DNA from: Yuukianura sp. NJ FZ-2021
Lineage: Eukaryota
Assembly: GCA_046563655.1 (NCBI GenBank)
Contig: CM102285.1
Location: 5,766,001-5,830,000 of the forward strand
Direction: 5' to 3'
DNA length: 64,000 nt
Each line of letters opens with the position of its first letter. Position 1 is the stretch's first letter. A program made the translations under genes and the position numbers. This document shows, one piece after another, positions 6,701 through 54,902 of this stretch. The notes beneath the pieces are model-generated. The model saw nothing but the letters and a program-made list of their open reading frames with translations, was not told the origin of the DNA and did no database searches.

Positions 6701-6729
6701 ATGCACTTAAATCCACCATAGACGATAGC

Positions 6730-7600: not shown

Positions 7601-7959
7601 CTCATCAGCGGATCACAATCAGATCAGCTGTCTCTGACGTGTTTTCTAAACAAGAGGCGAAGGAAGACACTGAACTAAAAGAAGATAGTGACCTTGGGGG
7701 AAAAGAACACGTCAAACGAGAGGATGAAGAGGAACTTGATCTCAGTAATGCCGATACTGAACCCGTGGATCCTGAGGATCTTTCAGAAATACAAGCCCCG
7801 CCTACTATGGAAGTATGTGTTCAAACCAACGATGAGAGCTTTGTCACGAATGTTCCAATCAACAAATCCGTTGAAAAAAGAAAAACAAAAAGCATTTTGA
7901 AATGGAACTGAGGGATCGAAAATCTCCAAAAACGCCCGCAAAGTACCAAGCCAACATGG

Positions 7960-8930: not shown

Positions 8931-8949
8931 GGAATCAGCTACAAACAGA

Positions 8950-12920: not shown

Positions 12921-15900
12921 AGATGTATACCAGTCGCTTGACTGACAACCATGACAACAAAAATGACGTCATCGCGGCTGTAACAATGTTGGATGACACA
13001 GTGGAGACATTGGCGGATCTCAATGAACAGGCGCTGACTTTTCTTTTGGATGATGAATCCTCGACCCCAGAGACGTTGTACACGGAGCATCGTGTCAACA
13101 ATGACATCAAGAGAAAAGCTACTCTAGTGAAGATTGAAGCATAGAAGATTCTCCATCCACTTGTCAAGTCACAGAATCGTTCGTCAAATGATGATGACGC
13201 ATCGTCAACCAGCAGACATATGAAAATGAAATTACCGGACAGAGTTACGGAAGTACTCTGGAGAACTGGTCGACTGGATTGGATGGTGGTCACAATTCAA
13301 GAAGATTGACGACGATGACGAAATACACATTGTGGACAAGTTCGGTTATCTCGTTCAGTGTATGGTGCGAGGATCCAAAGCAGAGGAAGCAAGAGAAAGC
13401 AGAGCCCTTGGTGTAAGTGTTGACAACATGGTTGAGCTGTTGTTTCCTATGGTGGAATCCTGCTTGCCGGATGACATTTTGGTTGCATGGCAACGAAGTT
13501 CCGACTTTGGGCGTGATGGGTCCAAGGAGAACCCATCAAAGAGTGAACTTGATTTCCTACTGGCATTTCTGAAGAAAGAAGCTGGCAACAAGGAACAACG
13601 GGCACTTACTCAGGTTGGTTTCGGACCTGGTCCTAGCCAAAAGAAGAAAAGCCACAGCAGTCCGAGAGAAGAAGAAGATGTGCCCACGGCGGCTGGACTG
13701 TTCAGTGGACAATTTGAAAACAAAGAGAAGCCAGGGCTTGTTTGTGAGAAGCAGCATCCTTCCAAAGACTGCTTCAAGGCACAGAAGATGACATTAGAAG
13801 ACAAATAGGAGGTCATCAAGAAAAAGGGTGTTTGTTTTTCGTGTTTAAAAGGTGGACATAGGTCAAATAAGTGTCGTAGTACTCCTCAGTGCCTTGTCTG
13901 CGGTAAGAAGCATTTGGTTCTACTCTGCCCCCCCCCAGATCTCATCGTCATCCAGTGGTTTCAGTGATGGAAAAGAAAAAGATGATGGGAAGAAGAATCA
14001 GACGGTGCTCTCACGTCTCAATTGTACCAGCGAAGTCGTACTCCAGACGCTGATCGTGCAGTTGGAGAATCCAGTGAGCCATAAGAAGAAGAACGTTCGT
14101 GTTCTACTAGATTGCGGGAGTCAAAAATCTTACATCCTAGATTGTACGGCCAAGGAGCTGGATCTGGATCAGAAGGACACCGTGGTCATGAATCATTGAT
14201 TGTTTGGTTACAGTACTGTAATAGTACAGTTACTACAGATCTTGAGGGAAGATACACTGTCTCTTTACCTTGGATCAATGGCTCTCAATCTCTTCCTAGA
14301 AATCGTGCAGTGGCTCAGAAGCGGTTGGAAATCACCACACGGAAGTTAGTGTCTCTGAATCGGTTCTCAGATTATGACAAAGTATTTCAAGAATGGTAAT
14401 CCGAGGGCATAATTTCAGTGGTCGAGGACTTGGGTGACAGTGAGAGTGTTCCGGGTCATTATGTTCCTCATCGCGCCGTCTTCAAGGCCAGTCTAACTAC
14501 TCCAGTGCGTCCAGTGTTCGACGCCTCGTGTAAAGTAGGGAGGAATCCGTCACTTAATGAGTGCTTGGAGAAAGGACCGAATTTCCTTGAGGTTCTTCCG
14601 TCAATTTTACTTCGTTTCCGGATGGGGAAGATTGGTGTGATAGCAGATATCCGTAAGGCCTTTCTAATGATCAATGTGAAAGAAAGTGATCGTGATTTCC
14701 TGCGATTTCTATGGTGGGAGGACAAGCAACGACAAAAAGTGAAAGCGTGTCGGCACAACCGAGCCGTTTTTGGAATGAACTGTAGTCCATTCCTTCTAGG
14801 TGCAGTCGTCTTCCATCATTTGAACCAGCATCGGTATGAAAATCCCGAGGTCAAACTGTTTGACCCCCTACGACTTTGGACTCCAGTTGTCACTTTACCG
14901 AAAGTACTTCCTCAACAAGCATGGAACGAGAACAAGACTTGGGATGAAGAAGTATCTGCAGAAATGAAGACAAAATTCCTCAGTTGGTCCAAGGAATTCG
15001 CTGAAGTGAGTGACAAAGTTCGACTACCTCGGAACTGTACCAGTGGCACAACCAGAGACAACCGAAAGATCCAAATTCATGTGTTTTGTGATGCAAGTAA
15101 GAAGGCTTACGCAACGGTGGTGTTTCTTCGCATTGAAACTGAAGACGGTGTGAAAATCCGATTTATTCAAGCGAAGTCTAGAGTGGCACCGCTGAAACCA
15201 ACCACATTCTCCAGATTGGAGCTTCTTTTGTGTTGTATCTCAGCAAGACTGGTGACAGCAATTAAGTCAGCGTTAGACCTCGAAAACGACGTTCCGACTT
15301 ACCTTTGGACGGATTCCATAACGGCCTTGTCGTGGATTCGCCGAAGTGACGAGTGGGGAACGGAATAGGGTCAAGGAGATCCTGAAGCTGACAAAAGTCG
15401 AAGACTGGAACCACATTCCGGGTTTGGAAAATCCGGCAGATCTGCCATCCAGGGGGACTTCTCCGACCAGGTTCGTGTTGTCGCGATGGTGGGAGGGACC
15501 TGATTTGTTGAAAATGGAAAAGGAGATGTGGCCTAGATCAGAATCATCGGTGGACGAAGTTGCAGTCAATCAGGAGCGTAAGAAGAGTATCATCGTCATC
15601 CGGTTTGTGAGTCTTTTGAAGAAGGAGTCTACGGAGAAGTGCGAGATTCCTACCATCACAGAACTGGAAGAGGCAGAACGAAGATTGATCAAGATCATTC
15701 AAGAGGAATCATTTCCCATGCACAAAAGTGTCATTTAGGGTTTGAGAGTGCAAGTGGACTCAGAGGGACTACTAAAAGTGAAAACCAAAGTGACTAATCG
15801 AGTTGACACAGACACTTTTAGGAAACCAATTTTACTTCCACATTCTCATCCCATTGTCAATCTCATGATCCGGGACACTCACATCTTCAACGCACACGGA

Positions 15901-19993: not shown

Positions 19994-20280
19994 GTATTTT
20001 TTAGCTGGCGGTCACCGAACACTTACTATTGTAAACTAAAAAATATTCTCTGAGGAGTTGCATGCTTTTTTTTATAGCGAACCTTGAAAAAATTGGCATT
20101 TTGAGAAATCAACATCGCTACCGGCCAAACTGAACCAAGCTAACCTAAGCTACTCCTTGCGTGGCAAGGTCGCATGCTAAAAAATGCACAAAACAACATG
20201 TTTTGAATTGATCGAGCAGACAGTTAAAATTTGAGTCTATTTAAGAGATGTAGACGATTAACAAGCAATCGGTCAAAGTG

Positions 20281-22590
20281 ATGAAGTTTTACACTATGCA
20301 GAAAATTTTTTTAGTTAGTGTTGCTGCTGTTGTGTTTCATTTGTTTGTAGCTGTGTGTGCAGCGGAAAGCAATCCTATACAGATCCAAAACTTACATCTC
20401 CTGGTAAATCAATTTCCATACAGTGATAATTTAGTTCTAACTTCACACACTAGACACACTGAAATCAGCGGTATCGAAGTTCCAATCAAGTTGTATCATA
20501 TGAAGTTCAAACAATTTTACTGTCACAACGCAAGTGGTTACACAAGATACACATATCTGATGAAAAAACCGATTAGTTCTAAAAGTAAATTGAATCACTT
20601 TTCAATTTTTATGATATTCCCTGACACCACTGACCTTCCTAAGTATGGTTGGAAGCCTCAATATTGGGCAAAACTTAGTCCAAATACTGACTCTAATTCT
20701 TGCCGCCTATTGCCTTTCTCACTTGAGTCGCCTACTCATGTATTGAATATTTTTGCCCACGTTGTTGGAAACGAAGACCAAGTGGGAATTGTTGATGGTG
20801 GTATTTCTGGAATGTTGCCAATTCAAACACACAAATTATTTTACAAAGTTCAAAAATGCACAACAAAATCCGACAAGTTTACAACAACAAGTAGAATTTC
20901 CGAAATTTCATTTTTGTTTAGAAATAGACGTTTTGGGATCAATACAACCGAAGCGTTGGAATTCAGTCGTCTTAGAGAACTCATTCTTAGTGAGGCTGAA
21001 GAGGCACGGATTATAGAACATTACCCAAACGGTTATCAGTACGGTACAAACTATGTTAACTTAGAAGGCAAAGGGCGCGTAAACCCGTTTAAATCTTTGG
21101 AACAGCAATTAGGTCAAAAGCTTGCGCTAGTTCATTATGTCCGTTTGCTTCTTCATGAACACATTCAAATATTAGTGCCGCAGGAGATGTATGCAGAGTT
21201 GACCGCACAGCCTAATTTAGACTTACAAATAAAGCTATGGAATGCGGATGCCAATGCTATACTTACCATGCGAGCTCCCTACATATTCTACCACGAATAT
21301 TTCGTTTCTGTTCGAGTCGAGACTCTAAATTTCTTAACTTGTGACGGTACGAGAAACATGTTGACGTTTGAGTTCTACACAACACCATACGATATGCACT
21401 CATGGTGTTTAACAGCAACAGTTGGAATGATCCTGCTACTTTTTATTTGTATCTCCATCTACGTCCGATCAAATTTTCACCTTACACGGGAGCATTTTGT
21501 TTTCTACATGTCCAACTACAGTCTCAAACTATTTAGTAGCCTCCTGGAAGTTTATCACCACGTTCCAGAACTCAAGTCAACAAAGAACAAACGTTTGTTT
21601 GCAACAAGTTTGTGGGTACTGTTAACAGTTGTATTGACAAATGGGTACAAAGGCGTTGTAGTTTCATTTTTAACCACAGAACCACCAATTACAAAAACTT
21701 ATCGCGCTCTGAAGCAATTGAACCGCTTTCTTGTATTTGCCGGGGACGACTCAATTAACTTCATAGATGAGCGCATGAGAATGTTTGACTACACGCGTCA
21801 AAAACTTCAAGTCACAAAAAAATCTTATTTCAGTTTCAATCGATCTCTGGAAGACAGTTTTGAAGGCTGCCTAAAAAACGTACAAGACAAAAAAGTTTCA
21901 GTGTTGCCAGCACAGCGTTTGCAAGGAGGAGATGTTGCAGGTTTTGTAGTATGGTCTCCATCTTACATGTTATGGTGTAAGAAGGATAACATCGAAATGA
22001 CAACTGTAGATGGCATTGTAGTAGACTCAGTACTACCCAAAACAATTGTACTTGGAAGCATTCAACTCGTCGTGGGAATTCTACATGACGCTACTCTAGA
22101 AGTGGAATTGACAACGTTATCAAAAACGATTTCAAACTGTACGAGGTTGGCTTTGATGAGCTTTGATTCCTACCTAGATGCGTTTATAGCACATCATGAA
22201 ATCACCAAAGAAAATAACAAAAGATTGCACTCAAATTCACCTACTATTACGGAAGATGAAATACATTTTCGTAAAGGCGACAACGTAATTGGCACGGTAT
22301 ACATGGGTTTTGAAACAAATGTGCAGCACATTTATAACCGATTGCAGATACTAATGTGCTCAGGAATATTCAGATTGTGGGAAAAGTGGCAACCTGTTCG
22401 CTCCCCAACAGCTTATGACGACATTTCAAAAAAATACGAGGAACTGAAGTTGATAAGAAGCGGTCCGAAAACATTAAACTTGGCGGGAAACGTAATCACA
22501 TGCTTTTACATGCTTGCCTTTTGTTGGTGTGTATGTACTGTTCGGTTTCTGTGTGAAAAGAAGTATTTTGCCTTTGTGTGCCTACCATGA
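20281..22590 (+). CDS. Divergent ionotropic receptor (IR-like), single exon, intact
   Basis: About 770-aa ORF. Signal peptide; NFLTC and 'YTTPYD..SW' before TM1; 'LWVLLTVVLTNGYKGVVVSFLT' TM; 'CSGIFRLW'; final TM. Confidence 0.85.
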   Translation: MKFYTMQKIFLVSVAAVVFHLFVAVCAAESNPIQIQNLHLLVNQFPYSDNLVLTSHTRHTEISGIEVPIKLYHMKFKQFYCHNASGYTRYTYLMKKPISSKSKLNHFSIFMIFPDTTDLPKYGWKPQYWAKLSPNTDSNSCRLLPFSLESPTHVLNIFAHVVGNEDQVGIVDGGISGMLPIQTHKLFYKVQKCTTKSDKFTTTSRISEISFLFRNRRFGINTTEALEFSRLRELILSEAEEARIIEHYPNGYQYGTNYVNLEGKGRVNPFKSLEQQLGQKLALVHYVRLLLHEHIQILVPQEMYAELTAQPNLDLQIKLWNADANAILTMRAPYIFYHEYFVSVRVETLNFLTCDGTRNMLTFEFYTTPYDMHSWCLTATVGMILLLFICISIYVRSNFHLTREHFVFYMSNYSLKLFSSLLEVYHHVPELKSTKNKRLFATSLWVLLTVVLTNGYKGVVVSFLTTEPPITKTYRALKQLNRFLVFAGDDSINFIDERMRMFDYTRQKLQVTKKSYFSFNRSLEDSFEGCLKNVQDKKVSVLPAQRLQGGDVAGFVVWSPSYMLWCKKDNIEMTTVDGIVVDSVLPKTIVLGSIQLVVGILHDATLEVELTTLSKTISNCTRLALMSFDSYLDAFIAHHEITKENNKRLHSNSPTITEDEIHFRKGDNVIGTVYMGFETNVQHIYNRLQILMCSGIFRLWEKWQPVRSPTAYDDISKKYEELKLIRSGPKTLNLAGNVITCFYMLAFCWCVCTVRFLCEKKYFAFVCLP

Positions 22591-25051: not shown

Positions 25052-26408
25052 GTAGAGTAGGACGGGGGCAGTCGGATAGTTTTTTGTTTAGAATTCTGCT
25101 GTAATTAATTGGTTAAGATTTTTGAAAATTTGTTTTTGTAGCATCATATTTTATACGATTCTCTACAGAATGTCTAATTTTGCGGAATATTGAAATGTTA
25201 ATTAGTACGCTAAAAATCGTTTCTTAAAAAAAGTAGCAAACTATCCAACTGACCCCATGCACGGGGTCAGTCGGATAATAGGATGGGGTCAGTCGGATAA
25301 TTCAAATCGTAACTTAGATTTCGCTTCCATCAGTTTATTTTTGATGAAACTAAAGATCAAAATGAATTGACAAGTTATTTTTTATTGGAATAGTTTAACT
25401 TGTCTTAAGTTACCACGCTTTGAGGTCGGTTTAGAACCATTTGGTACGGAAGTAACCTTCTTAGCCTTCTTTTTGTTTTTGGTTTTGGTTTTCTTGGTGG
25501 GTTTTTGACGCAACAAACGTTCGGTTTCCTCAGTTCTGACCACGTTTAATGTTGGCGTATCAGTCAGCACGCAGGACTTTCTCTTCTTCCCTCTTTTGGA
25601 AGTTTTCCTTGGTCCGCCTTCGGATGCGGACGGATTGAACGCAAAACCTTAGGAGTTGACGAGTGATTTGCCGCGTCTGAAGTTGGTTGAAGAATGGGAA
25701 TTTGCGTACTCAATTGCAGAAACTGAAATATGTGAGTCGTGATTATCCAGGACAAGTAGGATCTTGTTGTTGGGTGAAGGGTTCGCATGCTTTTTAAAGT
25801 GCTCTAAAAATGTCACAAAATTTTCTTTTTGCATCCACCCTGAACAGTTGGAAATTCCAGTGCAACCAATAGGGCCATCAGAAATGAAGTGTTCATAGGT
25901 AATTAAGTCCGTAATTACGTTTAGATCAACACCTCGTTGCGATTTTCGGAAACGTTTTCGTATCATTGCTAGAAGCATATAAATACAAATTATCCAACTG
26001 ACCCCAAGGTTGATTATCCGACTGACCCCAACCTCTCAGTTTTAAAATATTTTAATTATCTAATTCAACTCAAGAGTAAAAATTAAAAATATTACCGTGA
26101 GCGATTCAGATTCGTTTGTGGAACATTCCTGATATTCAAATGATCAATTACAATGCCTACTTTTATTGGAATCCTCCTTCTAGTAACAAAGTTAAAATTT
26201 TACTTTTGACTTTTTTGGAGATACTTTTTTTTCATAATTAAGTTAAACAAAGCGCACACTCCTAACAAAGTTACTTTAGACTGCCGCCCCAAGCACACTC
26301 CTTAAGGAACATACTTTGAATTTACCCGATTTTTAGATTCACTGATGAGAAAGATATTAACAATTATCCGACTGACCCCACTATCCGACTGCCCCCGTTC
26401 TACTCTAC
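25052..26408 (-). mobile_element. Internally deleted pogo/Tigger-type (DDE_1) DNA transposon
   Basis: About 28-bp TIRs 'gtagagtaggacgggggcagtcggatag' (1 mismatch), with TA near both ends. Transposase fragment SGWMQKENF..FLEHF..ILLVLDNHDSH. Confidence 0.9.
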
Positions 26409-26559: not shown

Positions 26560-27931
26560 TTAAAGATTTAAATCCTGCGTAACTCTGGCTGGATGAAATG
26601 TTGAGTTCTTCAGTGGATTTTTGCCAAAAACCTGGAAACACAATAATTAAACTGCAATAGAGTAGGGTTAATTAGTTTAGTAAACTGGAATAAGTTATTG
26701 GAATTAGAAAGCGAAAATTATATTTATTTTGCCGTACGGTTATAAAGTAGTTGACGCAGCGACTGCGTTCTACAAAGTGGTTGGGGCGACTCGAGATTCC
26801 TGTGTGGCGTCCCCACGGATTAAATATTTTGGTTTCATCAAACACCTATTTCAATATCATAAAAAAAGTTAAAATTTATATTCTTTGAATATTCAAAAGT
26901 TCGCAAAGTACCGTTTAAATTTACCGGTACTGGCCCGTTTTCGGTAAAATTTGAAACGATAAAATTCATAGCAATGTCTTCACAGTTTACTTTTTTGTCG
27001 ATCCACTTTTTAATTTGGGTGGGTAGGTTATACGTGTACAACCAGAGGTACCGTCGATGAAGAAACGTTGAGCCTGTCAAGGTCATGGAAATTTCGGTTT
27101 CTACGGGATGCCTCTCGTACTGGAATGTTTTTGTGGTTTCGTTGAAACTAATTCCACGGTGCTTAAAGCCGACGAGACTGTCGTAATTTGCTTTCCACGC
27201 ACTCAATAATTTAAAAATTCAATAAAATTTAAAAATTGGAGAAGTTTTGGAAATTTTTACTGAAAGTAATTTATGCTTAGTATTTTGGTATGTACTTGAA
27301 TGCTGCCAGTATGTACTTGCTGTCAATAAAAACGTCATCATCGAGTGTCAGTACTGCTTCGGTATTAATCACCCGAAGTGGCAAAAATCTGTCATTGAGT
27401 GAGTCTCGACCGGTCCGAAACACACGAACTGGAAAGTTCGTTTTCGGCCGGTTCGGAACAGTTTCCGGTAGTTTAAGAAAGAATTTGGTAGGTGCAAGTT
27501 CCGCTCCCGGATTACTCCAAACGATCAAAATAGTGTCGATGGGCAACCCGGAATTAGACAAATGCTGAATCAAGTGTGATAGCATCTCTACACGCTGGAA
27601 TTTGAATGTGTACAGTAAAACTGTAAAATTTTGAGGAAATTTTTTGCTGATTGAGAGTTTTAGTGAAAGAGCGAGGTCCCATTTTTCCAAATTTTCAATG
27701 TCGTTGGGACTTAAAACAAAATCGTCCAGAATCTCTACTGACAATTCCATCATATGCGGAAGTGGTACAAACACTGACTAAATGAAAAAATAGATTAAGG
27801 TGCATTCTTTTGAGTTTTAAAAATGTCATTTTGCTTACATGATCGTTGCGCGGAGGAAACCGAAAAATGAGTGAAGCACAGACCAACATGGACAGTAGGA
27901 GTAGTACAACACAAAATCGCAGTTTCAACAT
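26560..27931 (-). CDS. Exostosin-like GT64 glycosyltransferase (EXTL2-like), multi-exon
   Basis: N-terminal signal anchor; ILIVWSN; SLNDRFLP...TEAVLTLDDD; SMTLTGSTFLHRRY; NCEDIAMNFIVS; HFVERSRCVNYF; VFGKNPL. GT-AG introns. Confidence 0.88.
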
Positions 27932-29836: not shown

Positions 29837-32100
29837 ATGCTTAGAAGTAATAGGCCTGGTAATATGAGCAGTAAAACTCAAAATATTGCGTTTATTGCGA
29901 AATTTACAAGTTTTTTGGGCAGCCTATGCATTGTGCCGTTCAGGTTCAATAAAGCTGGCGAATTTGAGCGTACCTCAAAATTTCATCAGTCACTTTGGCT
30001 ATTTTTATATTCCATTAATCTCTTGAAATCGGTTTCCTTCGGAACGGTTTTCGTTCAATGGTACCTCAGTATCATTTCGGTGACAATTTTCGACATTAAT
30101 AGTTTCACTATACTTCGCTTCTCGCTACACTACGTCTGCATCGTGTAATGCTGCATAATAAAATGCACAATACTGTCATTGATTTTCACAAGAGACGAGT
30201 TTGTATTTGGATTGAACCAAATAGTTTTTGTAAACAATATGAATCACAGTAACAATTTTTGTCTAATTTGCATAAAAATATTGAGATACTTTTTGAACGC
30301 CAAATTTGTATTGATTTATTTTCTCCTAGTACAGTGAAGCATGTAAAAGAGTATAAAAAATTGTGGCTGAAAATATCGCATCGTTTTAAACTTTTTGCTT
30401 TGATTCTGGTCTTCATTGACAATATGGCTGCCCCGATGGGTTTGATTTTTCCTCGGAGAATTTTCGATTTTTACTACTTTGCTTCTCATTTTTTGAATAA
30501 TTTTGTCGTGATGGTTCTGTTTGCTGTAATGGAAGCGTGTCTCTTGTTTTAATTGGGTGGTATGGGAGAATTTATGATAAAACTTAGTCTTGCTTACATG
30601 TTATCCTGCATACTTACACTACAACAATTACGGTAAGTAGAGCGCAGTAGAAACAGAAAGACAATACTTAGGTTACAAGGTAGAAAGAATCTACTGCAAA
30701 TTCTGCAAACGAATGTTCTGCAGAAAGAAAACGCGTTACCGTTGGAAATTTTTAGCAGAAGGGACTGAGGTGTTTTGCATAGCATTATTATTTTGAGAAA
30801 TATTTAAATCAAAAATATTTCCTACTCGTGTGGCGTGCTGGGTACGTCAGTTCGCCCTATACAAAATGTCAAAGCGTTTTACTTTTTTTTTCGCGATACA
30901 TGCAGCAGAAGATCCTTCCTTGCAAACAGTGGAACTTGGCTACGGCTACCATAGTACGTTCCGTTTCCGTTCTTTTGAAACGGAACGGTAGGCCACAAAA
31001 CGGAAACGGTCACATAACATATTAACAAAAACGGAACAAAAAAATGGTAAAACAGTTGACTTCATAACGAAATTTCAAAAGTAAGATTTCGCGTTTTGCC
31101 TTTCAAAAGTCATCTTTTCTTTCCAATTGTGGTCAAAATAGTTAGAATGGACAATAAATCTACCGTATAATTTTCTTTTTTTTGGCGACAACGAAAACGA
31201 AACAAAAGGTACAGTTTCAAAAAATTCAAGAAACGAAAACGAAAAAATGGAACGTCCGTCGTGTCGTTTTTCGTTTCACACGGAGTAGGCGGCACCGATT
31301 ACCCCGGCAAAAAATCCAACTAAGAGTCATTTCACGCCTACTGCTCTTCATACTAAAATCAATTTGCACTAATAATATAAATATAATACAATGACAGTAC
31401 AGTATAGGACCTCTTGTGGAAACTCCTCTGATTGGGCCTTCTCATCCTACTCCTCCCATGGTCACCGTAAAACTTCTAGTAATATGTAAAACTCTTACGT
31501 AGAGTTGAGTTTTGAAAATTTCTCTTCTCGCCTTCCCTCCACTAGTTGGAAGTTGGCGGTATAAGAGGAGGGAGAAAGAGGGATAGCGTGGTTTCCACAA
31601 GAGGTCCTATACTGTAGTAATAAGTGTCTCTCCAGATCCGAAATTCGAACAAACCGGATTGAAACTTTTTACTCCGAGTCAAAAATTTCCGTTTTGACTT
31701 ACCGTCAGTTTCAACTGCTTGATCGTCGCTACCGAGATTGCTGCTCAACAGTTCCCGTTCCAACTCTGGTAGTTCTAGTGGCTTCTGCTATGGTCATGCA
31801 ACGCTATGCTCTCATAACAAAACGGTTTGGATCTCTTGGTACTGTCATCTACTGCATGTTTGGAGTGACACTTGTGTACGGAACTACAACATTGTCGGTT
31901 TAACATTCTAATGGCTGGAACGTTGAATACTGAAGGTGAGAAGTTTATTGCGACGTGGAAACGGAACGTCAAAAGTCGCAAAAAACTGCAGGTAGTAAGA
32001 AGTTTCCGACCGCTGTGTGGCAAGTTATAAGTTATAACAAGTGACACGCCGATGACATCTTCCGACTTCTTCTTGATAGCCTCATTGACCTATTATTGTC
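29837..32100 (+). pseudogene. 7TM chemoreceptor-like pseudogene, copy A (MITEs in an intron)
   Basis: Hydrophobic ORF pieces with stops and frameshifts. C-terminal '...LQVVRSFRPL' motif. Paralogous to 43615 and 63570. Confidence 0.65.
31400..31614. mobile_element. Tc1/mariner-pogo-type MITE
   Basis: Perfect 24-bp TIR CAGTATAGGACCTCTTGTGGAAAC, with TA on both sides. Confidence 0.9.
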
Positions 32101-32789
32101 AACTTTATGCATTATGCATATGGGGTATATATGGGGTACGTTATGCCTTCTCATGTATGTTATATATTAATTATTTTTTTCTACTATATATTATATAAAA
32201 AAAATATACACCGGCAATATTTATCGAACTTGGAGATACACAACTCCACTATGTTTTTGAAACTAGTGGCGTCAACTATCATTTGCAAACAATTAGATTA
32301 TGTCTCCCTAAGAAATTTTTAGTTTGAGGTTTTCAGACATAGAAAAGCAGCGCCACACTTTGACCATGATGGCAATTTCTAAAAGTTAGGTTAGCAGAAC
32401 CAAAAAAAACAGATGTAGCATAGTTAGCTTAATCGGAGGAGTTATCACAAGTAGAGCATGCTGAGTTGGGAAGAGGAGAACGTCCGAAGTCGATTGTTGT
32501 AATTTTCCGTCCAGTTTTCAGTTATTCGATTATTAATCGAATCAACTTAACATTTTCATGAAGTTAGGTTACATTTGAACCATCGAGTTAGTATCCAATC
32601 ATTGGTTTGTTCGGTAATAGTTTTAGTAGTAGGCAAAACTTCGCTGGCTATCTTTGACCTAGTGTGCATACTAAAGGTACGGATTTAAAGCTACTATACA
32701 TACCTCAATTTCCGTCGTACCTACAATAGATTCATCTGGTTACGTATCATTTTCATTCATTTTTAGAAGCATCTCTTTCAGAATCTAGA

Positions 32790-35631
32790 ATGGATCAAAC
32801 GCCAGCTCGCCGTGCCCCAAGGTCTCAACACCGACGTCAGACTTCCATCTCTAACAAAAGCACTCACAGTGGTGTCAACAATAACGTCGATGCTACCAAT
32901 AAGACTACCACTCCAGCCATGTCTCCGGAAGTTCTGGCAGTCGACGTTTCAACTCCAGCCAAACGTAAGGTGTGTCCGCAAACTTCATCAGCCACAAAAT
33001 CGCCATTAATGCCCTTGCCAAATGGCAAAAAACGGAAAGTACAAAGAAAACCTGAACAGAGCCTACCACCCAGGGAGCCTGAAGGTGAGTAAAACTGAGT
33101 AAAACTAACACTACTAAAAGAGTGATACAATATCAAGGATTGCAATTCATGATCCCGATCCTAACTAATTTGAGGATGCTGAACATGAATATGAGAAATA
33201 ATTCCGCGGTAACCATATTTTCAAATTTTTACAAAATTTTGAAAAAAAAAAAATTTTTTTTGTGGATGTTTCGGTCTCTGATTTGCATGAAAAGCGTATA
33301 CAAGCTCAGTAATCTATCTTAAGCTACAAATGGAATCACTGTTGCGAACTTTTGTAACAACGCGCCTTAGGCGCGGGAAATCGAAAGTCATTTCAATTTC
33401 AATGAAAGTTATTTGAGGATTCCGGCTAAACCCGGTTGCAGATACGAATTCAGCACCCTACAATTCGGAAAATAAATTTGATGCAAATCAGGGAACACAA
33501 AGATGAATTTATTTTTTCAAAAATTTCAAAAAGTACGAAAAACTGGTTTCTGCTGAAAATTTGAGTGTTCAGCACCATCAAATTAGTCTAGAAAAACGAT
33601 ATGCAAATCCGGGTTTCCCAGGAATTATGCATTTTTACCCGATCCTAATTAAAATGATATGAAGCGCCGTGCCCGCTCCCAACTGCCGAGGATCGGGTGC
33701 CTCGAAATCGGGAGTGCTTAGTGTTTTCCGATCATTTGACTATCCAATTCCCCGCTCATAATGTTAATAGCACTGGAGCGGGAACTGTGGTGTAAGCCAA
33801 TAGATCGGGAGCGAGCCAAACTCTGTCATAGTAACCTTGTATTTGTAATTTGAAAATTCTGAACAATAATCTTGTTATCCATAAAATCCAGAGCAGCAAA
33901 CAACAACCACACCATCATGCAGTTCAAATTCAACTGAAAATGGATTAACCCCATCTCAACTAAACCAGAAATTTGTTGATCATTTAGCCAACGGCGGTGA
34001 TGATTATAATACTGTAAAGAACTTCTGGTTCCGAATCCAGCCTAATACTCAGGCTATTACTGAAACAACAGGAAACAAGGCTAAACAGATTAAACCTTGG
34101 GACATTTCTGCGTTTATAGCAGTAATATATTGCTTTAACTTAACCTTGTTTAACACAAAACATCACAAAGCCCTGGATAAGTACAGTATAACATCTATTT
34201 TAGGAATATGGACCAAAGATGAAGGAGATAGTAATAACTGCATATGAACAATACCAAATTGGCTACGTCCTGCTGCAACGTGGTAACTACAAAGACGTCT
34301 TGCGCAGGAATTGGTTTAAAGGATGCAAAGAACCGGTGTTGATGAAAAAGGAAAGCAACGAGAAATTTTTGGTGGAACCAGCTACTGACAGTAATGTTGT
34401 CAAGCGTGTGTTTCGGGAAACTGAGAAAACTTATCGGAACGACCCCGGGAAAGATGTTGAAATCCGAAGCACTCCAACGGTAAAAAATAAGTTTGTATAA
34501 AAAGATCTTTATGATGTGGAATTAATAGTTGTTGACAGTTACACTTAGTCGTCCTACTACTCGTTCTATTTTTAAATTCTCATAGTTTTTGAATTTAAGA
34601 AATTTATTTTTTTTAAATCTGTTTCTAGGACATTTTGATAAAACAATCATTCAACATGGACACTCCCCACGATGCTTTAGGTCACATTGAGAATGTGAGA
34701 CCATCGTTATTCTTGTCAGCCTCAGGGTTGGAAGATTACGTCACATCTAAATATGACACCGATATACCAAAGTTTGATAAAAACACTTTTAAAATTGAAT
34801 TTATGGGACGAGACTTTTTGACAAAATTTGCTCTGTTCATCTGTGGAAAAGCTGGATGTGGGAAATCCGCCTACGCAGCAGCACATTTCGAAAACCCTTT
34901 GATTCTCTCTGGTCCAGAGCAGGTTTGAAACAAAAAATATGAATATATAAAAATATAATAATTTGTATATCAAGGTTCCTTAACAACAAGAAGTTAACTT
35001 TCTTTAACAAGTTAGGCACTACATCGGTTATTGAAAAAAAAACTAAAAAAAAAACAAACATTAGTACCAATTTAATACCAATCCAAAAAACTGGTACCAA
35101 TTCGTATGCAAAATTTAAAAAATTGACTGTGTTGTTATGACTACAGACTTTTTCTTTTGCAAAATAAAAAAAAACACCAAGTATATTACCCAACCTGTGA
35201 AAGAAAATGAAAGGTCAACAAACCTTGCTGTATATGAAAATATAGCAATTTGAATTTATTATATCGCCAACAATGACAATTTCAAAGATACCTTAAATAT
35301 TTTCTATATTTTATTCCAGTTTACTAAAAGACGCTATAATCCACGCAAACACGACGGAGTAGTTTTCGAAGAAATTGACTTGAGCGTACTAAACAGCGAA
35401 GACGTCCTGCACTTGGTTGATGTCCAACAACAAAACTCTGTCCGAGTTCGTTATGGCAACGTCACTTTACCACGATTCTTGCCAAGGATTTTCACAACGA
35501 ACAAAAAGATGAAAGCTCTAATTCCAGAATTTCCTCGGTTGTATAAAAAGAAAGGATGGTGTAAAGAACAAATTGCAGCATTCCACAGAAGGATCGGAAT
35601 TGTACATTTCATAAAAAAAAAATATTTATGA
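32790..35631 (+). CDS. Intron-containing CRESS-DNA-virus Rep-like gene (SF3 helicase)
   Basis: Exons 32790-33084, 33892-34121, 34204-34478, 34629-34922 and 35320-35631 splice GT-AG in one frame. Walker A GKAGCGKS, Walker B-like HDGVVFEEI, B' 'VRVRYGNVTLP', motif C RIFTTN, Arg finger AFHRR. Confidence 0.8.
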
Positions 35632-35773
35632 ACTATAAAATTTTATAATGCAATTCTCTTTTTCTTTCAAACAGATGTCTGCCTTTGAGATAGATAAGTT
35701 GTATCATGAACCAGCAGACAAAAGTGTTGAAAAATTTACTCAGCTCGGTGTGGAGTCAACCGTCGACTGGCAG

Positions 35774-35948
35774 CGTAGCAGGTGAAATGATCAGAAATAT
35801 TTGGTCAGAAGTGAAATGATCAGAAGTGAAAAGGTCAGAATTCAAAAGATCTCAGGTTAGGTTTCGTTACGTTCCTTCCTTTTCTGACCTTTTTTTTCTG
35901 ATCATTTCACTTTTGATCTTTTCACTTTCTGACCAAATCACATGGAAC
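35774..35948. mobile_element. Small foldback MITE with 9-10-bp TSD
   Basis: Arms of tandem 'atgatcagaagtgaa' units in inverted orientation. CGACTGGCAG flanks both sides (35764-35773, 35949-35958). Confidence 0.7.
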
Positions 35949-37649
35949 CGACTGGCAGAACCAAGCAACATGGAGTGTGAATATTGAGAATGGAATCAAT
36001 GGAGAACTGATTGTGAAACCAGGGCATACGGTAACTCACTAAATGAAATACTTTTTTTTAAATAGTAATGAACTTGGAATTGTAGTAATTCGGAATATAG
36101 TAACGCATCACTTATACCAATACGTATGTGTAATACACTAAATCTTAGTTAGGCAATCCTTATACTCTTTTATTGTTCGAACTTGTGTCAATGTAGGGTG
36201 AAATAATGTTCCGAGGGAACTTGTATACAACTATAACCATAATTGCCTTACTCTCTTTTTTTTTTGGATCATCATACATTGTATATATCATATATATCAT
36301 ATATATTTATCATATATAGTTATCATATAAAATTAACATTTTATTCTCGGCTATAAGTATTAGACGTGCAATAGATTTAACACTTAAACCCTACATCTGA
36401 TCCGCAAAAGTTAATTTCGTACAATACTTCAGCTATATTTTGTTACTCTGTGGAACGAAATTGACCAAATAAATGTGCCAATCAAAAGTGTTAAATTGGT
36501 GAGTGTTTCCAAATCCAAACTGAAAATGGAATTTCAGGATTTCTCTTTATATTACGTAGTTCCAATCACCAAAGCCGTATGACAGTTAAAAGACTTATTT
36601 ATTATTAGTACATAATAAGTGAAGTAGTATTCAAATGCTACACTAGCACCAACATAATGTAAACAGAGTTCTACGTGTCTGTATCATTACTGGTGGAAAT
36701 TTTTATGTTTGAAGTGTGGCACTACTCACCAGTTGGAGTAGCTCCGCTTGCGGTCCTGCGGAAGCTCGGGATTTAAAAAGTTTGCAGCCGCTCAGAATTT
36801 ATGTTTGTCAACTGTTCTTCTTCAGAAAGGCCACGCCGGTGGTCTACTTTCAGCTTCTGTTTGATTGTCTCATCAACATGTTATTGTCCACATAGATTCT
36901 GGCACTGGCCATTTCAAAATGAACCCGGATGTCAATTACTGATATGCATCAGCGGAAAGTGTGCTAATTATTTAACCTACCAATTTTCCGCGTTGTAATT
37001 ATAATGCAGTGTTAATTAATGAGTTTTCAAATTTTAAAAAGTTCCTTTAATGCTTATCACCTTGGTACCATAATTAGTTAAAAGGAATCGTAATTAAACA
37101 AAAACGTAATTTTTATTTTGCCCACTCGAAAAACTTTTCAACTTACTCTCCTGGTACCGCTCTGAAAAAGCAAAGGTGTGACGATGTGAAAAGTTCTCGA
37201 GACAAAATCAAAAGTTTTTACAAAAATTTTTGTAAACTTTTCAAGTATGAAGTCCTTTCTAAGTTTATTCTCATTTTTGCTTGCGTCAGAAGCGGAGTCT
37301 AAAAGGAATATTACTGTAAGTACATAAAACTTGGATACGGGAGATTTTAAAATATAATATTTTAATTTAACTTTACTATATAATATATAATTATTTATAA
37401 GTGGAAGAATTCAATGCATATTTATATCGACTTATATAGTTACTTGTAAATTGCTTGTAAATGCAAACCTTCAAACCTTTGTTGTTTAAATATTTTAAGT
37501 GTAATCGAAACCAAACGTTTTCGCCGTGCCAGAAGTCCGATGTTACAGTGAGCTTTTGGTAGCATGCAGCACAACCTCCCAATAAGTCGAGCTTACGTGT
37601 TCGCTGAATTTCACGATAACATTTGCCAACAAATTTTTGGCCACGAAGG

Positions 37650-39730: not shown

Positions 39731-40036
39731 TAGTTAGGTTCAGAAGCCGTAAAACACAGAACTCAGAGGATCAGGATCATAATGCCTGCCAGTGACCCAG
39801 GAACCAAGGTCAAAGTTCAATTTAAAAAAAACGATAAAAACAGTTTTTAACACAACAAGCCTCAACAGCAGTTTTGAAGGGCAACAGGTGCTAGAGTTTT
39901 CTCTGAACAGTTCATCTGGCTGCAGTCTAAGCAGTGACTCTAGAGGCTCATGGCTACATAAACGGCATAGGATTGCAAGCCCTTTGAAACTACAAGGCTT
40001 CACGAAAATGGTATCATCCTCCACATTCATCTCACA

Positions 40037-41252
40037 AACTTTCAACATCGCAAAAATGTACAAAAATGTATATTTATTGCGTTTCTGGAATTGGATTCAT
40101 TTGTAACTGCTTGAGCATGATTGTGCTCATGCGCAAAACAATGCGCAGCTCAACTAGCATACTACTTTTGGGACTCACAAGTTGCGATTCGATATACCTA
40201 CTTGCCTGTTGTGTTACGGCGGAGGAATCTAGTAATTTGTTTCAAGATAGATCCTTTATCTCAAAACTGACGGAATACCTGGCTTACGCAATGAAAAAAC
40301 AAGTAATCATTTAACCTTATGATAAGAAAAGTAGCAATATATCATTATGTAATATTCTGTACGTGTTGTATTAATTGATTTTAATATGCACTTGCCTACC
40401 AAAGCATGTACACAATACTTCTTTTATATACATATATTGTTTTTGTATACAAATTTAATACAAATACACTTGTTGTCTTTTTAGTGTATACAGCGTCGGT
40501 GTACATGACAATTTTGGTTACATGGAGCGCTATGTTGCAATTTCAAAGCCGCTTCTCGTGTCGTCAATTTTTACTATAGGCAAAGCACGAAGCTACACAC
40601 TGCTAGTTTTTGGATTCGCAGCATTTTTGAATTTACCGCGGTGGTTGGAATTTGTAAAATGGAGCTACGAAGCATCTTTCCCTTGACTGGAACAGAAGTT
40701 TCTCAGCGTCAGTTGCACAGATTTCCAATCTATCAAATCATTTACCAACAACTGATTTGGTATACATGCATCTATACTTGATTCCCTTCGTCATCGTTAC
40801 GCTCAACATACTCATCATTAAGGCGGTAAATTCAAAACTATACTTGGGAAATCTTCAAATAAATGTTGCTTTTTGGTTTTTGTTGGTTAGGTAACAAAAG
40901 CTGCAAGAGAACGGCGACTCAGCGCTGCAACCCATGATTCTGTGAATGATAATTCTTTGACAAAAATGCTGCTAATCGTTGTATCGTTTTTATTTATTGT
41001 AACTGTTTAGCCGCTGGACTAGAACACAACTTTTCTCTGAAGGGATTTGACCCAGACGTTGCAGCCACAATGGTGTCTCGGCCGCTCCTTATATACTCGG
41101 CCGTAAATTTCATTTTCTACTGTATTTTTGGCAATAAATTTCGCTCCGAATTGAAACTTCTAGTCATAGAAGTTGAACATGGATTTCAACTAAATGTATT
41201 CATGGAAGAATACGCAGATCCAATTCGTTCGAACTCTGTCAACCTAGGATGA
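40037..41252 (+). pseudogene. Rhodopsin-like peptide GPCR pseudogene (FMRFamide receptor-like)
   Basis: GFICNCLSMIVL..MRSSTSILLLGL..CD; ERYVAISKPL; NLPRWLEF; LTKMLLIV; SAVNFIFYCIFGNKFR. Contains introns and frameshifts. Confidence 0.8.
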
Positions 41253-44378: not shown

Positions 44379-47300
44379 TGAAATGGATTGGATGGTAGGC
44401 GGTGATTGGATTTTGTGGTTTTTATTACAAAATAAAGTTTTACTTTAAAGTATTTACATTTAATTCATTTGTAATTGGAAAAAGCAGACCATGCTGCTTA
44501 CAATCAGAACTAGAAGTGAAGTGGGCAGTTCCTCTGCTCATCTTCTCCTTTTTTGCACACACTTTTTCTTAATTGGATATACTTGTATCTAACACGCTTT
44601 TCGACAATTTGAAATTGGCGCTTCCCTATTGAGAAGCGTCTCAAATGCCAAAACACCGCCCTCCATTGAATGACTGAGTCATTCAATTTTTGAAAAATAC
44701 AAAAGAAAAATGGTGACCAATTTTAAATATACACAAATTGAAAAATTGAAGGGTGCTCCGATGCTACTGGATTCGGTGGCTGAAGGTGGACAAAGCCTTC
44801 TTCCAGTTGCTCAGGCTGGATTTTGCCGTTTACTGGACCCTACCAGTAGATCAGAACACAAAAGATCACCCACACAATCACACATCCAAAATTAAGTCAC
44901 CTTAGGTTCAGTAAATTACTCTACTCGAACGGAAGGTGTTCTAGCAAATGATTTTACCCCTAATTTGAAATTTTGAAAGAGATAAATACACTAACCGCTA
45001 AACCAACACCTAAATTTTGGAAAGAGATAGACTTAACACGAAGCCTAACTAACCACTTATGCTTTGATAGCTTAAAAATACCACTTAATACTTAAGATTT
45101 TCAATGTAATTTTAACCCAAACTTTAAAGTTAATGAATAAATGAATGAATATTATTGAATATAACACTAAATTATTTGACACTAAATGACTTTAAATTTT
45201 TTAACACTACATTATTTACACACAGTCCCTAGACTTACGCTACTCTGGTTCTAGTAGCTTGACGATTTTTACGACTGGACGAAGAAACACATGAGCCTTC
45301 ACTTTGGATTTTTCTTTCTTGTCGATTTCAGTCGTCTTGTAGATTACCTCCACTGATCGTACCAAATTGTCTTCTCCAGGGAATGTTTTGGTGATTCTGG
45401 CAAGTTTCCACTTCAACGGTGGAGTGTCGTCGTCTTTGATGAGAACGAGATCGCCAAACACTGGTAATTCGACATTTTTTAGCCAATCTGGGCCACACCA
45501 CCACAATTTTGAACTTACGAATTCTTCTGCAGAAATTCCACGAGTACCAAGGTCAGCCGGATTGTCCACTCCAGGAACAAAATGCCGCGAACTGACTGGA
45601 AGTACTTCCTGGATTTCTGAAACGCGATTAGCAACGAAAGTTACGCACTTACGACTTGTGTTACGCAGCCACTTGAGTACCGTTTCACTGTCGGTCCAAG
45701 TGATGATTGTGCAATTCAGACGAGTGGCTTCCATCACTTTGGGAATCAATTTCGCCAGAAGTAGAGCACCACACAACTCGAGGCGTGGTAGGCTGATCTG
45801 CTTCATAGGAGCCACTTTCGTCTTTGATGCGATGATGTAGATAGTGACCCGACCATTCCTCCGAATTGAACGGACGTATACTACCGCACAGTAGGCCAGT
45901 TCCGATGCGTCACAAAATTCATGAATTTCAACAATTTCTGGAGAACCTGAGAACAAAAACCTAGGAATGGTTAGACTTTTGATGTCGTGGACACTTTGGA
46001 CATAGTCATGCCATTGTCCGACTAGGTCAGGCGGAATCTCATCGTCCCATGACAAGATTCCATTTTCCTTTCCCTGCACTGGTGACCACAAGACCTGCAA
46101 GTAAACTTTGATTTTAACTGTTAGAGGGGACAAAAAGCCAAGTGGGTCAAAAACTTTGGACATAGTCGACAAGACCGTCCTCTTTGTAACCACTCCCACT
46201 GGTTTTGGTGTGTAACCTTTGAAATGAAAGTAGTCACTTCCACTGTCCCAACACACGCCTAAAACCCTGTCAAATTCAGCATCACATGTTATTACGGCAT
46301 TTTTACCTGGCTTGACCTTGGGAATGGACTTGAGTACATCTTTTGAATTCGAGTCCCACTTTGTAATTTCCAGGCAACCAGGTCGTAATAGTCCTTCCAG
46401 CTCTGTTACGAGTCGATTGGCCTCCTGGACACTGTTAGCTCCTCCCATCAGATCATCCACATCGAAATTTGATTTGAACACCTCAACAGCATTAGGAAAC
46501 TTGCCCTTCACGTCTTCTACGAGTTGCTGTTCCAAGTTCGGTAGCATTGTTTCCAACATCGCAGTTGACACGTTTGAGTCTCCATTCACCTGGGACTCAA
46601 AAAATAATAATTTTAAATTAATTTGATCAATTAATTGGTCACAAATGTTGAATTGCGCAGCTTGCTCTACTATTTGAGTTTCATCATCGCAATTCATGTA
46701 CACTTCAGTGCGGATTTTTGCCAACCTCGCATCTAAATTTTCAAAGTTTTGAATTTCCGTAGCCATCATGGACTCGGACACAGTTTCGGGAGCATTCATG
46801 TACTCCTCGATGTTTTCCTAAAAGTGCTGGAAGTCACAATTAAACTCCCAAATGGCCTTTACCACTCTCTGCATACTTTCGGATTCCACATTTGGTAATT
46901 ACACATTCAGCACGGTCCTTGAGCCAGTCCCCATGACTTGACCTTGACCTCGTGCTGCGGCCTTACTCCTACTTTCCTGTTCTTGGTCAGACATACCCAA
47001 AGCCACTTCTTTGGTTTTCATTCTGGTCAACAGCTTGTACCTTGATTAATTGCTCAAAAGAGCCACACACAAATTAGGTTACAAGTACTATTGCCAGACA
47101 CACACAATGACATGACCCAAGATAGGAACACACAATTTAATTTTACACAATGATCATCACATTAGGTCAATTTCCCCCTTTGAACTCACCTAAGTTAACT
47201 GTTACGTTAGTTAACGATTACATTACCAAAATACCGCATGCTTCATCCTCTGTTGATTGGTGGTTCGTTGTCTTGTCGACGCAACCGTCTTTCGGCACCA

Positions 47301-51999: not shown

Positions 52000-54728
52000 T
52001 ATATATGTATATATATATGTTTATAAGAGGGGACTCACTATCTATTGATTAGAATAGTGAGGTCCACGCTGAGCATGCTCATTGGCATATTTCAGACTCT
52101 CCTAGAGAAACAGCGTTACTCTTGCGGGCTGTCCCTCTGCTTTGCCCGGTTTAACCTCCCTGTTTTCACGACATAGTCAAGCAGGGAGGGCAGAGGGATC
52201 GTGGCAAGGTCTTTCTTGTCTAGGAACGGTTTCCCAAACAGAATCAACCTTGTGTGTGCATGGCCTTCACACTCTGCCAGAAAATGATCTCTGCTTTCAT
52301 CCCCTTTCCCACAGGTACTGCAGGTAGGGGAGTCGGCGAGACCGATTTTATGGAGATGCAAGGCTAATAAACAATGTCCGGTTACAATCATAGCTAGGAG
52401 TCGTAACGACCCCCTGCTTAGACCTAGACAGAACTTTGCTGTTTTGTCGCTGAGGGTTCTCAGCATAGTTTTTGAGTCCTTATAATCCTTGCTGATGCTC
52501 CATCTCTTTTCGTGACGCATCTTAGCCCATCTGCTAATGGCAGTATGAACTGTGCGCATCGAAATCGGTAGAGCGGGTGCAGGACCATAGAACGGTATAT
52601 TTGTTGCCTCTTTTGCTAGCACGTCAACAGTCTCATTCCCTTCATACCCGCTGTGAGCTGGTATCCAGTGAACTGTAACTTGTCTAGTGTTAGCTAGGTT
52701 GTTCAATGCGTCAAAACACTCTCTGAGCATGCCCGTTTGCATCCACGGGCTTCTCAGGCTGTCTAGTACGCTCAATGAGTCGACGTAAATATTCGCGGGA
52801 AGCACGTTCCTTTCGAGAATCAGTTTCTCCGCAGCTTTTAGCAAAGCAAAGACTTCCGCCTGGTAAACAGTCGGATGTTCTCCCAGTGCTAGTCTATACT
52901 TCCTTGCAGGTCGGTTGGGGGCTACGATGTAGAACGCTGCTCCCGACCTGCCATCGATGCGTGAACCGTCCGTGAAACAGTTCAGGGCTTCTTTAGGCAG
53001 ACCTTGCTTGGGGTGTTCTGCCCATTGTTCCCTTGAGCATACTTTTATTTCAAAGAATCTCTCGGTGGGTAGAACGTTATGATTCTCGCAGGGGAATCCC
53101 ATTTCTGGTATTTCCACTGCGTTTGATTCACAAATTTGAGCGTGGGTTCGCGTTTTCAGCGCGTTAACCCTTGCTGGTATCCAGTCTCCTGACAGTTTGA
53201 GTCGATACATTGTTCGGACTGCTACTGACTGGAGCTCTATATCCATTGGTCTCAAGTTCAAAAGAGCCTCCATTGCGGCCGTTGGTGTTGATCTCATCAC
53301 GCCAAACGTTGCCAGCAGGGCCGCTCTTTGTACTCGGACTAATGGTTTTATAGTATTTGGTTTACATGCAGCCTCAGTCCAGACCACCGCCCCGTAGGTT
53401 AAGGTTGGCCTCACTACAGCTTTGTAAATCCAATTTGTGTATTTTGGAGAGAGTCCTTGCGTTTTTCCAATAGCGCGTTTGCACTGGGCTAGCGCAATGG
53501 AAGCTGCTGTTGCTCTCCTTTGTATGTGAGTTGTCCATTGTAGCTTGTCATCTAGAGTAACGCCTAGGTAACGTACCACTTTGGAGTATTTAATTTCTAC
53601 CTCCCCAACTGTAAGAGGTATAAGTTTTGTGTTTCGTTTTCTGGTGAACAGAATGGCTTCCGCCTTATCCCCGCATAGACCTAAATCTATGTCTGGGCGG
53701 CAGCACCATTCTAGCACCTTGTTTAATGCCTGTTGCGTAATGCTGACAATAGTGGAATAATCAATCCCCACTTGGAGGAGTCCCAAATCATCAGCAAAAG
53801 CCTGGCTTAGTAGTTGTGGAAATTGCTGGTTTAGTGATACTAACAACTCACTTACCAGCAGAATCCATAGGAGAGGAGAGAGTACTCCGCCTTGTGGGCA
53901 GCCCCTCTCTACGATGCTTTCTGCAGATTCGTCCTGGAGTTCACTGGCTACTGTGCGGGTCATCAGCATGTGCTGGACAACCCGGATGCAGCCGTCGTCC
54001 AGGCCCTCCCTCCGCATTGCAGCAATCATAGAACGAAAAGTCGCATGGCTGAAAGCTCCTTCAATGTCAAGGAGCACTGCCAACGCGTACTGTTGATTGC
54101 GTAATGCTTGCTCTGCAAGACTGACAAATCTGTGCAGCGCAAGCTCAGTCGACGCTCCTCTGAGATACGCACATTGCTTAGCAGCTTTAAGTCTTTCCAC
54201 AATTGTAGGAGACCTAAGGTACCAGTCAATGAGCCGCTCGAGGACTTTTAGAAGAAATGAAGTTAGTGATATCGGCCTCCAAGAGTTAGCCTTACCATAA
54301 CTGTCTTTTCCTGGCTTGGGAATGAAGACGGCCTTGGTTTTCCTCCAACTCAATGGAATATAACCAAAGCGTAAACACGCCCGCATGATTCTGCCCAGTA
54401 TGGGGGTTAACGTCTTTCGTCCTTCAATTAACATTCCCGGAAAAATGTTATCCGGGCCTGCGGCCTTGTATGGACTAAAAGTTTTTAACACCCTGTCAAC
54501 TATGGCGTCGTGTGCCACATCCTTTACGACGGGGCCGTCGATTGGGGTGTGGTCATGTGTAAGCTCCACCTTGTTAGGATCTGGAGGATAATGTTTGTGA
54601 AGAAGATATTTTATCGTCTCCGCCACCCCCTCCGTGTACGATCCGTCTGGGAGTTCAACCGGACCAAGTTTGATCGTCTTTCCTCCCGCTAGGACCCTGT
54701 ACAGCCTGGCGGCTCTAGATTCGATCAA
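52000..54728 (-). mobile_element. 5'-truncated non-LTR retrotransposon (RT + RNase H; LOA/Lian-like, I/R1 group)
   Basis: 870-aa open ORF: KAAGPD, FIPKPGK..RPISLTSFLLK.LERL, LDIEGAF, GCPQGGVLSPLLW, FADD, YLGV, RNase H FTDGS and HWIPAHSG..GNE, C-terminal CxxC..H..C. (TA)n tail near 52000-52020. No endonuclease. Confidence 0.93.
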
Positions 54729-54902
54729 GCAACAAACAATTTTTTTTTACCCTACTAAGTAAGAACTTTTTTTTTCAAAAGTAATACCGTAAATCTTCAA
54801 ATAATGCCCCATGTCCTATTAGTGCCCCTCTCCGACGGTTTTATTTTGTCTGCCTACATCGTGTGTAATCGTATAATTTTGTATTCTGAATTGCCATTTG
54901 CC

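Follow-up and report, generated by a model that had tools for sequence, protein, structure and literature searches.

A predicted five-exon gene on a Yuukianura chromosome with the helicase half of a CRESS-DNA virus Rep: a probable co-opted endogenous viral gene

Is the Rep-like helicase encoded on contig CM102285.1 of Yuukianura sp. NJ FZ-2021 (GenBank assembly GCA_046563655.1) a viral fossil, part of a mobile element or a host gene, and how much of it is viral? The question was raised by a 64-kb window (the whole stretch of DNA analysed; contig positions 5,766,001 to 5,830,000, forward strand; coordinates below are window positions). There, an earlier note had read a spliced, apparently domesticated replication protein (Rep) of a single-stranded DNA (ssDNA) virus at 32790..35631, with an intact superfamily 3 (SF3) helicase and a degenerate HUH nuclease. 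The locus is best read as a single-copy (within the window), intron-bearing animal gene that derives from a Rep of CRESS DNA viruses (circular, Rep-encoding, single-stranded) and was kept as a protein-coding host gene; the probability of this reading is put at about 0.72. By its sequence features the locus thus appears to be a co-opted endogenous Rep helicase gene. From the first reading, the Rep SF3 helicase, the introns and the domestication are supported, and the degenerate HUH nuclease is not.

The gene region was read at 32400-36000 and the proposed exons were joined by script. As had been stated, the five predicted exons, with GT-AG introns in phases 1, 0, 0 and 0, gave one open frame (1407 nt, 468 codons plus stop, 0 internal stops). 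Exon 1 (32790..33084; plus strand, as are all exons and introns of the gene) opens with ATG and holds 98 codons plus 1 base. It encodes a low-complexity basic N-terminus with PAKRKV and GKKRKVQRK, which by consensus we take to resemble nuclear localisation signals (NLS-like), and it had the lowest coding score among the five exons in a codon-usage frame test. Intron 1 (33085..33891; 807 nt, phase 1, GTGAGT...CAG) is followed by exon 2 (33892..34121), which encodes a Thr/Ser-rich linker and then the start of an N-terminal domain including KNFWFRIQP. Downstream of intron 2 (34122..34203; 82 nt, phase 0), exon 3 (34204..34479) supplies the remainder of this domain, with IGYVLLQ and VEPATDSNVVKRVFRE, at the position of the Rep endonuclease domain. 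Intron 3 (34480..34628; 149 nt, phase 0) leads to exon 4 (34629..34922), which contains LFICGKAGCGKS and encodes the Rep oligomerisation-domain homolog and Walker A (GKAGCGKS, 34845-34868). Intron 4 (34923..35319; 397 nt, phase 0) separates Walker A from Walker B, also in agreement with the first reading. Exon 5 with the stop codon (35320..35631) carries Walker B (VVFEEID, 35359-35379), motif C (IFTTN, 35488-35502), an 8-residue lineage-specific insertion (35530-35553) and the arginine finger (RR, 35587-35592). All peptides quoted in the earlier note were recovered, namely KKRK (exon 1), KNFWFRIQP (exon 2), IGYVLLQ and VEPATDSNVVKRVFRE (exon 3), LFICGKAGCGKS (exon 4), and HDGVVFEEI, HLVD, VRVRYGNVTLP, RIFTTN and AFHRR (exon 5).

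All four introns are GT...AG, with donors AAG|GTGAGT, GCA|GTAATA, ACG|GTAAAA and CAG|GTTTGA and with the acceptor AG placed after a pyrimidine-rich stretch. Tblastn with the spliced protein returned these five exons only, i.e. one gene copy in the window. Intron 4 is the only intron with independent support, an identical codon boundary in a homolog (L001, see below). Exons 1-3 were placed because their frames are open, their splice sites canonical and their phases compatible, and because a start codon is required. For each of them the annotated frame ranked first of six in the codon-usage test, which is weak and favours any stop-free frame. No homolog of exons 1-3 was found by Pfam on exon pieces or by a word-index protein search with exon 3.

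Homology to CRESS-DNA virus Rep, namely to its oligomerisation and SF3 helicase domains, is seen in exons 4 and 5. For an exhaustive HMMER search of 1.84 billion representative proteins, the exon 5 peptide (103 aa) was used alone; 339 proteins were obtained at E<=1e-3 and 2 at E<=1e-10, the best at 3e-12. A Pfam scan covered 37 top matches out of the 150 listed. It assigned Viral_Rep to 8, Gemini_AL1 to 7, Gemini_AL1_M to 1, AAA_24 only to 1, Response_reg to 1 and no family to 19, which places HUH-domain families (Viral_Rep or Gemini_AL1) in 15 of the 37. The matches are mostly 300-400 residues long and were aligned near residues 200-330, which is the architecture of CRESS-DNA virus Rep. Source contigs looked up for eight of them measured 1.5-5.3 kb, and the canonical N-terminal motifs (CFTLNN, HxQGY, YCxKE) are present in many of the top matches. 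A profile that included the closest relatives was compared with the PDB and matched nanovirus Rep (6h8o, 8e-18) and porcine circovirus 2 (PCV2) Rep (7lar, 2e-13).

The homology extends upstream into exon 4. Local alignments of the spliced protein to Reps ran unbroken over the exon 4/5 junction (residues ~311-435, 60-85 bits). Those to proteins P0140, P0124 and P0087 started at the first residues of exon 4, and those to P0140 and P0124 had high posterior support from residue ~270; the region aligned from there is the oligomerisation domain, which lies between endonuclease and helicase in Rep. A hidden Markov model (HMM) of 32 full-length Rep sequences (305 positions) was run on the 1578 six-frame open reading frame (ORF) peptides of at least 25 aa from the whole window. 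It picked out the frames of exon 5 (E 1.2e-25, profile positions 211-299) and exon 4 (E 2.3e-11, positions 144-207) and no third frame, the next best peptide having E 3.6. The helicase similarity lies well outside chance, and the earlier assignment of the C-terminal half to a CRESS-type SF3 helicase with intact motifs was supported. By alignment with relatives the SF3 core is complete, comprising Walker A GKAGCGKS, an acidic Walker B (VVFEEID versus IVFDDM in relatives), motif C IFTTN and HRR, and the invariant columns of exon 5 include D12, G13, T59, N61, R90 and R91. Identity to metagenomic Reps was 30-45% over ~160 residues. Two GC-rich contigs (L002, L003), 30-37% identical to the gene, resemble ordinary distant Rep relatives.

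Other searches returned little. Pfam on the five exon peptides singly gave no Rep family and only weak AAA_33 (E 0.088) and DUF4853 (E 0.15) matches, PDB sequences searched by phmmer with exons 4 and 5 yielded P-loop or chance matches only, and a word-index search of exon 5 against longer proteins gave nothing. An RNA-virus 2C or cellular AAA+ helicase had been named beforehand as the identity that would overturn the assignment. This was not what the searches found, since the best matches have Rep architecture and the PDB matches are Reps, with HUH-domain families in the proportion of scanned matches given above.

Two exon 5 matches were unusual at the N-terminus. P0019 carries a receiver domain of the bacterial response-regulator type (Response_reg, E 5e-15) where the Rep endonuclease domain would be, and is, by its domain order, apparently another Rep-type SF3 module with an exchanged N-terminus. 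The second-best match (P0007/P0156; 382 aa, contigs of 3.8-4.6 kb) has no Pfam family, and HUH/HUQ and YxxK were not obvious by eye in its N-terminus; judged from this protein, atypical N-termini may occur in some free Rep relatives too.

The best exon 5 match, P0006 (75 aa), formed a cluster of 1 member on 1 contig and led to metagenome contig L001 (5276 bp, 41% GC). The last two exons of its gene read ...FFLCGPANCGKSSYAESHFKNPLVINSPEQ, an 82-nt GT-AG intron, and FKSAYDPERHDGLVIDEIDLSVL...RIFTTN...NRRIGIVRF followed by a stop. As with intron 4, this intron (L001 229-310) follows the PEQ codon in phase 0 and separates Walker A from Walker B. Identity to the window gene was 42% over exon 4 and 48% over exon 5 (overall ~46%). 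Both genes have the 8-residue insertion, placed after motif C and before the arginine finger, which is absent from seven aligned viral relatives. Among 135 helicase regions placed in a tree, the two genes formed a clade (SH-like approximate likelihood ratio test, SH-aLRT, 99), with a path of 1.34 between them and of at least 2.75 to any viral Rep. Scanning viral contigs with the alignment of L001 and the window gene brought up no relative.

For the comparison of coding sequence, 176 codons of exons 4-5 were aligned, as the 5' part of the L001 gene lies past the contig end. Identical amino acids were found at 79 positions and identical codons at 37, and nucleotide identity at codon positions 1, 2 and 3 was 52%, 68% and 35%. 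dN was 0.57; dS was saturated, hence no numerical dN/dS is given. For these two exons and this one comparator, the pattern indicates long-term purifying selection on the protein. Beyond the two exons nothing in common was found between L001 and the window, so the two genes are taken as distant orthologs or paralogs from different organisms. The proposal of domestication was strengthened by this divergent homolog, with its common intron and its signature of purifying selection.

For the N-terminal half, the result was different. The earlier note had read the segments in exons 2 and 3 as degenerate rolling-circle replication (RCR) motifs I-III of an HUH nuclease. Viral_Rep and Gemini_AL1 were not found in exons 2 and 3 by Pfam at E<=10, and phmmer of residues 99-310 against the 150 Rep matches gave a best E of 0.56 (3.1 bits). 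An HMM of 99 Rep N-termini scored -0.3 bits, the sole aligned stretch being in the oligomerisation region, and hhalign against the alignment of the same 99 N-termini gave a probability of 0.4%. With an HMM of 33 canonical HUH domains the real sequence scored -0.9 bits and was equalled or exceeded by 755 of 1000 shuffles; run over every window ORF, the HUH HMM gave a best E of 1.1 and no HUH-coding ORF. In a helicase-anchored global hhalign, for which the N-terminal 143 residues were shuffled 100 times as a control, the real score was 204.65 versus 201.58 +/- 4.15 for shuffles, 23 of which reached it. In the anchored alignment FWFRIQP lies opposite motif I, LLQ opposite HUQ and VFRE opposite YxxK, in line with the earlier proposal. 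This mapping is geometrically reasonable, with the right domain size and position, and is statistically without weight. Exon 3 alone, modelled with AlphaFold2, reached a confidence (pLDDT) of 50.9, too low for use of the fold. Neither a metal-binding HUH or HUQ motif nor a catalytic Tyr could be recognised. The motif reading was therefore not supported, as sequence and profile tests were no better than shuffled controls; from the same description of the N-terminus, the low-complexity exon 1 and its NLS-like KKRK were seen as described.

The domain of exons 2-3 (~130 residues) is somewhat more probably an unrelated, acquired N-terminus, and a Rep endonuclease diverged beyond sequence recognition is a substantial second possibility. 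The fuller form of the latter, in which a whole Rep was endogenised and exons 2-3 keep the HUH fold with catalytic His and Tyr mutated, now as a DNA-binding module, is considered rather unlikely. The domain has the right size and lies directly upstream of the oligomerisation domain, the anchored alignment places its three segments on the three motifs, and captured Reps with dead endonuclease motifs are known (PMC10193959, in the portion consulted). Against this stands the lack of above-chance similarity by Pfam, phmmer, two HMMs, hhalign and anchored alignment. Total erasure of the endonuclease would also be unexpected if the fold were conserved, because the neighbouring helicase keeps 30-45% identity to viruses; in captured Reps elsewhere, as far as the consulted part of PMC10193959 describes them, the endonuclease fold is still recognisable after loss of the active site.

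The flanks are those of an animal chromosome. They contain a copia-type element (gag, Pol_BBD/integrase, SH3 and RVT_2; 4945-10593), two Pao/BEL protease regions (14400-15368; 45240-46817, minus strand), a reverse transcriptase of the type without long terminal repeats (non-LTR) with RNase H and zf-RVT (52116-54746, minus strand) and a DDE_1 transposase fragment (25649-26035, minus strand). Flanking host genes are represented by two exons of a GT64 (exostosin-type) glycosyltransferase (26838-27777, minus strand) and an exon of an Srw-type seven-transmembrane G-protein-coupled receptor (39988-40314, plus strand). An uninterrupted ORF of 778 codons (20254-22590, plus strand) matches Lig_chan weakly (E 0.0045, short of the Pfam cut-off) and, judged from this match, may be an intronless divergent ionotropic-receptor-like gene.

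The earlier statement that neither a capsid gene nor an origin is visible was borne out by window searches. No capsid family was found in the window, which is a weak negative because Pfam is poor at CRESS capsids. The nonanucleotide NANTATTAC had 14 matches versus 9.0 +/- 2.9 expected, and at the gene none of these lies in an evident stem-loop. Within the 29-39 kb searched, the gene was not found to be bracketed by terminal repeats, inverted or direct, except for AT-rich chance matches. A palindromic element of 175 bp (35774..35948), ~140 nt past the stop codon, has internal repeats of the GTGAAATGATCAGAA type and resembles miniature inverted-repeat transposable elements (MITEs). Bracketed by a perfect direct repeat of 10 nt (CGACTGGCAG; 35764-35773 and 35949-35958), it folds at -43.1 kcal/mol versus -19.9 +/- 3.2 for shuffles (z = -7.2) and has no second copy in the window. 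It is probably a MITE-like transposon insertion with target-site duplication and not a viral origin. Another MITE-like element (31398-31616), with perfect 26-nt terminal inverted repeats (TACAGTATAGGACCTCTTGTGGAAAC) 167 nt apart, lies 1.2 kb upstream of the gene. In intron 1, a palindromic insert has 50-nt arms that are 76% complementary (33202-33251 and 33508-33557) and direct repeats CCCGATCCTAA at 33154 and 33638 (region 33154-33657); this insert accounts for much of the 807-nt intron.

Such a setting might suggest that an undescribed mobile element carries the gene as cargo or as its enzyme, and that the gene is not fixed in the host. Transposons are abundant in the window, MITE-like palindromes occur in intron 1 and in the 3' flank, and geminivirus-like Rep transposons are described for fungi (PMC3198968, in the part consulted). 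This explanation is nevertheless considered very improbable: the window holds a single copy, no terminal repeats bracket it within the distance searched, and no nuclease or transposase domain is detectable. The exhaustive protein search led to one lineage relative (the 1-member cluster), not to the many fragments of a multicopy element, and the intron position is kept at 46% protein identity.

A further explanation holds that only exons 4-5 are genuine Rep-derived coding sequence, exons 1-3 being chance frames or part of another transcript, and that the product is a short protein from an internal Met or the locus a decaying, unexpressed fossil. Exons 1-3 are without homolog, and the opposite strand nearby contains chance ORFs of 100-125 codons, one of which scores 0.16 in the codon test. 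However, three consecutive open frames link to exon 4 in matching phases through canonical splice sites, in each of them the annotated frame comes out ahead of the other five, and the Rep homology of exon 4 begins with its first residues, as in an internal exon. The fossil variant is further opposed by the intact frame and by the conservation of exons 4-5 with a coding signature. Overall, this explanation is judged improbable.

Several points weigh against the preferred reading of a retained host gene. No homolog of exons 1-3 was found, so their membership in the gene is inferred, and transcription and the junctions of the five-exon model are predicted from sequence. The internal Met in exon 4 could yield a short product of oligomerisation and helicase domains. 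The lineage relative is one and partial, its 5' half lying off the contig. If the two genes stem from separate endogenisations of an intron-bearing virus, the selection signal could partly date from the viral phase.

For the host gene thus favoured, a function can be outlined from its motifs. The protein would be imported into the nucleus via the basic exon 1, would assemble Rep-like hexamers through its oligomerisation and helicase domains, and would bind and hydrolyse nucleoside triphosphates on DNA. DNA nicking is very unlikely because no HUH/HUQ motif and no catalytic Tyr are recognisable; the protein would accordingly be predicted to be unable to nick or join DNA or to initiate rolling-circle replication. 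Dominant-negative Rep fragments exist. By analogy with these, and with the nuclease-dead captured Reps apvRep and U94 (PMC10193959), the leading, still tentative, proposal is a Rep mimic that would interfere with related viruses, either through mixed inactive oligomers or by occupying Rep binding sites and competing for the origin. Otherwise, the protein may be an ATPase of host DNA transactions.

A bolder version of the proposal, which we regard as doubtful, is that the gene belongs to an animal gene family, old and conserved, with members in two or more deeply diverged lineages of eukaryotes. Here a Rep oligomerisation-helicase part would have been fused by exon acquisition to a non-viral, nuclear DNA-binding N-terminus, and the product would be a restriction factor that poisons Rep hexamers of ssDNA viruses, or a new cellular replicative or repair helicase. 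If true, such an old fused family would be the cellular counterpart of poxviral apvRep and of U94 from human herpesvirus 6 (HHV-6).

Compared with CRESS-DNA virus Reps such as PCV2 Rep (7lar) and nanovirus Rep, the gene has the same oligomerisation domain and SF3 helicase with Walker A, Walker B, motif C and arginine finger. Unlike them, it has no recognisable HUH endonuclease domain or catalytic Tyr, has four predicted spliceosomal introns, and is chromosomal, with no capsid gene or origin found in the window. It also differs by its added low-complexity basic N-terminus, by the 8-residue insertion before the arginine finger and by EE in place of DD in Walker B.

CRESS-like endogenous viral elements (CEVs) are Rep-derived sequences in animal, fungal, plant and protist genomes; some of them, with intact ORFs and with expression, are regarded as co-opted (Liu et al. 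2011, PMC3198968; Rosario et al. 2018, PMC6186406; both in the parts consulted). The gene is like them in being a Rep-derived sequence fixed in a eukaryotic chromosome. The CEVs described in the same parts of these sources are mostly contiguous Rep ORFs or fragments with a recognisable Viral_Rep or Gemini_AL1 domain, whereas the gene has four introns, one of them common to a 46%-identical relative, and only its helicase half is recognisably viral. The word 'intron' has 0 occurrences in PMC3198968, and a limited search of open-access main text found no multi-intron animal gene derived from a Rep helicase with an unrecognisable N-terminus. Rep-derived fossils are common and most are decaying intronless fragments; against these, the locus would clearly illustrate the remaking of a viral replication motor as a cellular gene, with four introns gained, any recognisable nuclease lost, every ATPase motif kept and the gene, together with an intron, common to a second, distant eukaryote. 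It is also a tractable candidate for asking whether proteins encoded by endogenous viral elements, besides PIWI-interacting RNAs, restrict ssDNA viruses in invertebrates.

The avipoxvirus apvRep and HHV-6 U94 are horizontally acquired Reps with inactivated endonuclease motifs and conserved Walker A and B, under purifying selection and with an unknown, non-canonical function (PMC10193959, in the portion consulted). In that account the recipients are large DNA viruses, the genes are intronless and the endonuclease fold is recognisable, whereas here a cellular genome received the gene and the N-terminal domain cannot be recognised. With these differences, the gene would be a parallel to nuclease-dead Reps that poxviruses and herpesviruses captured independently.

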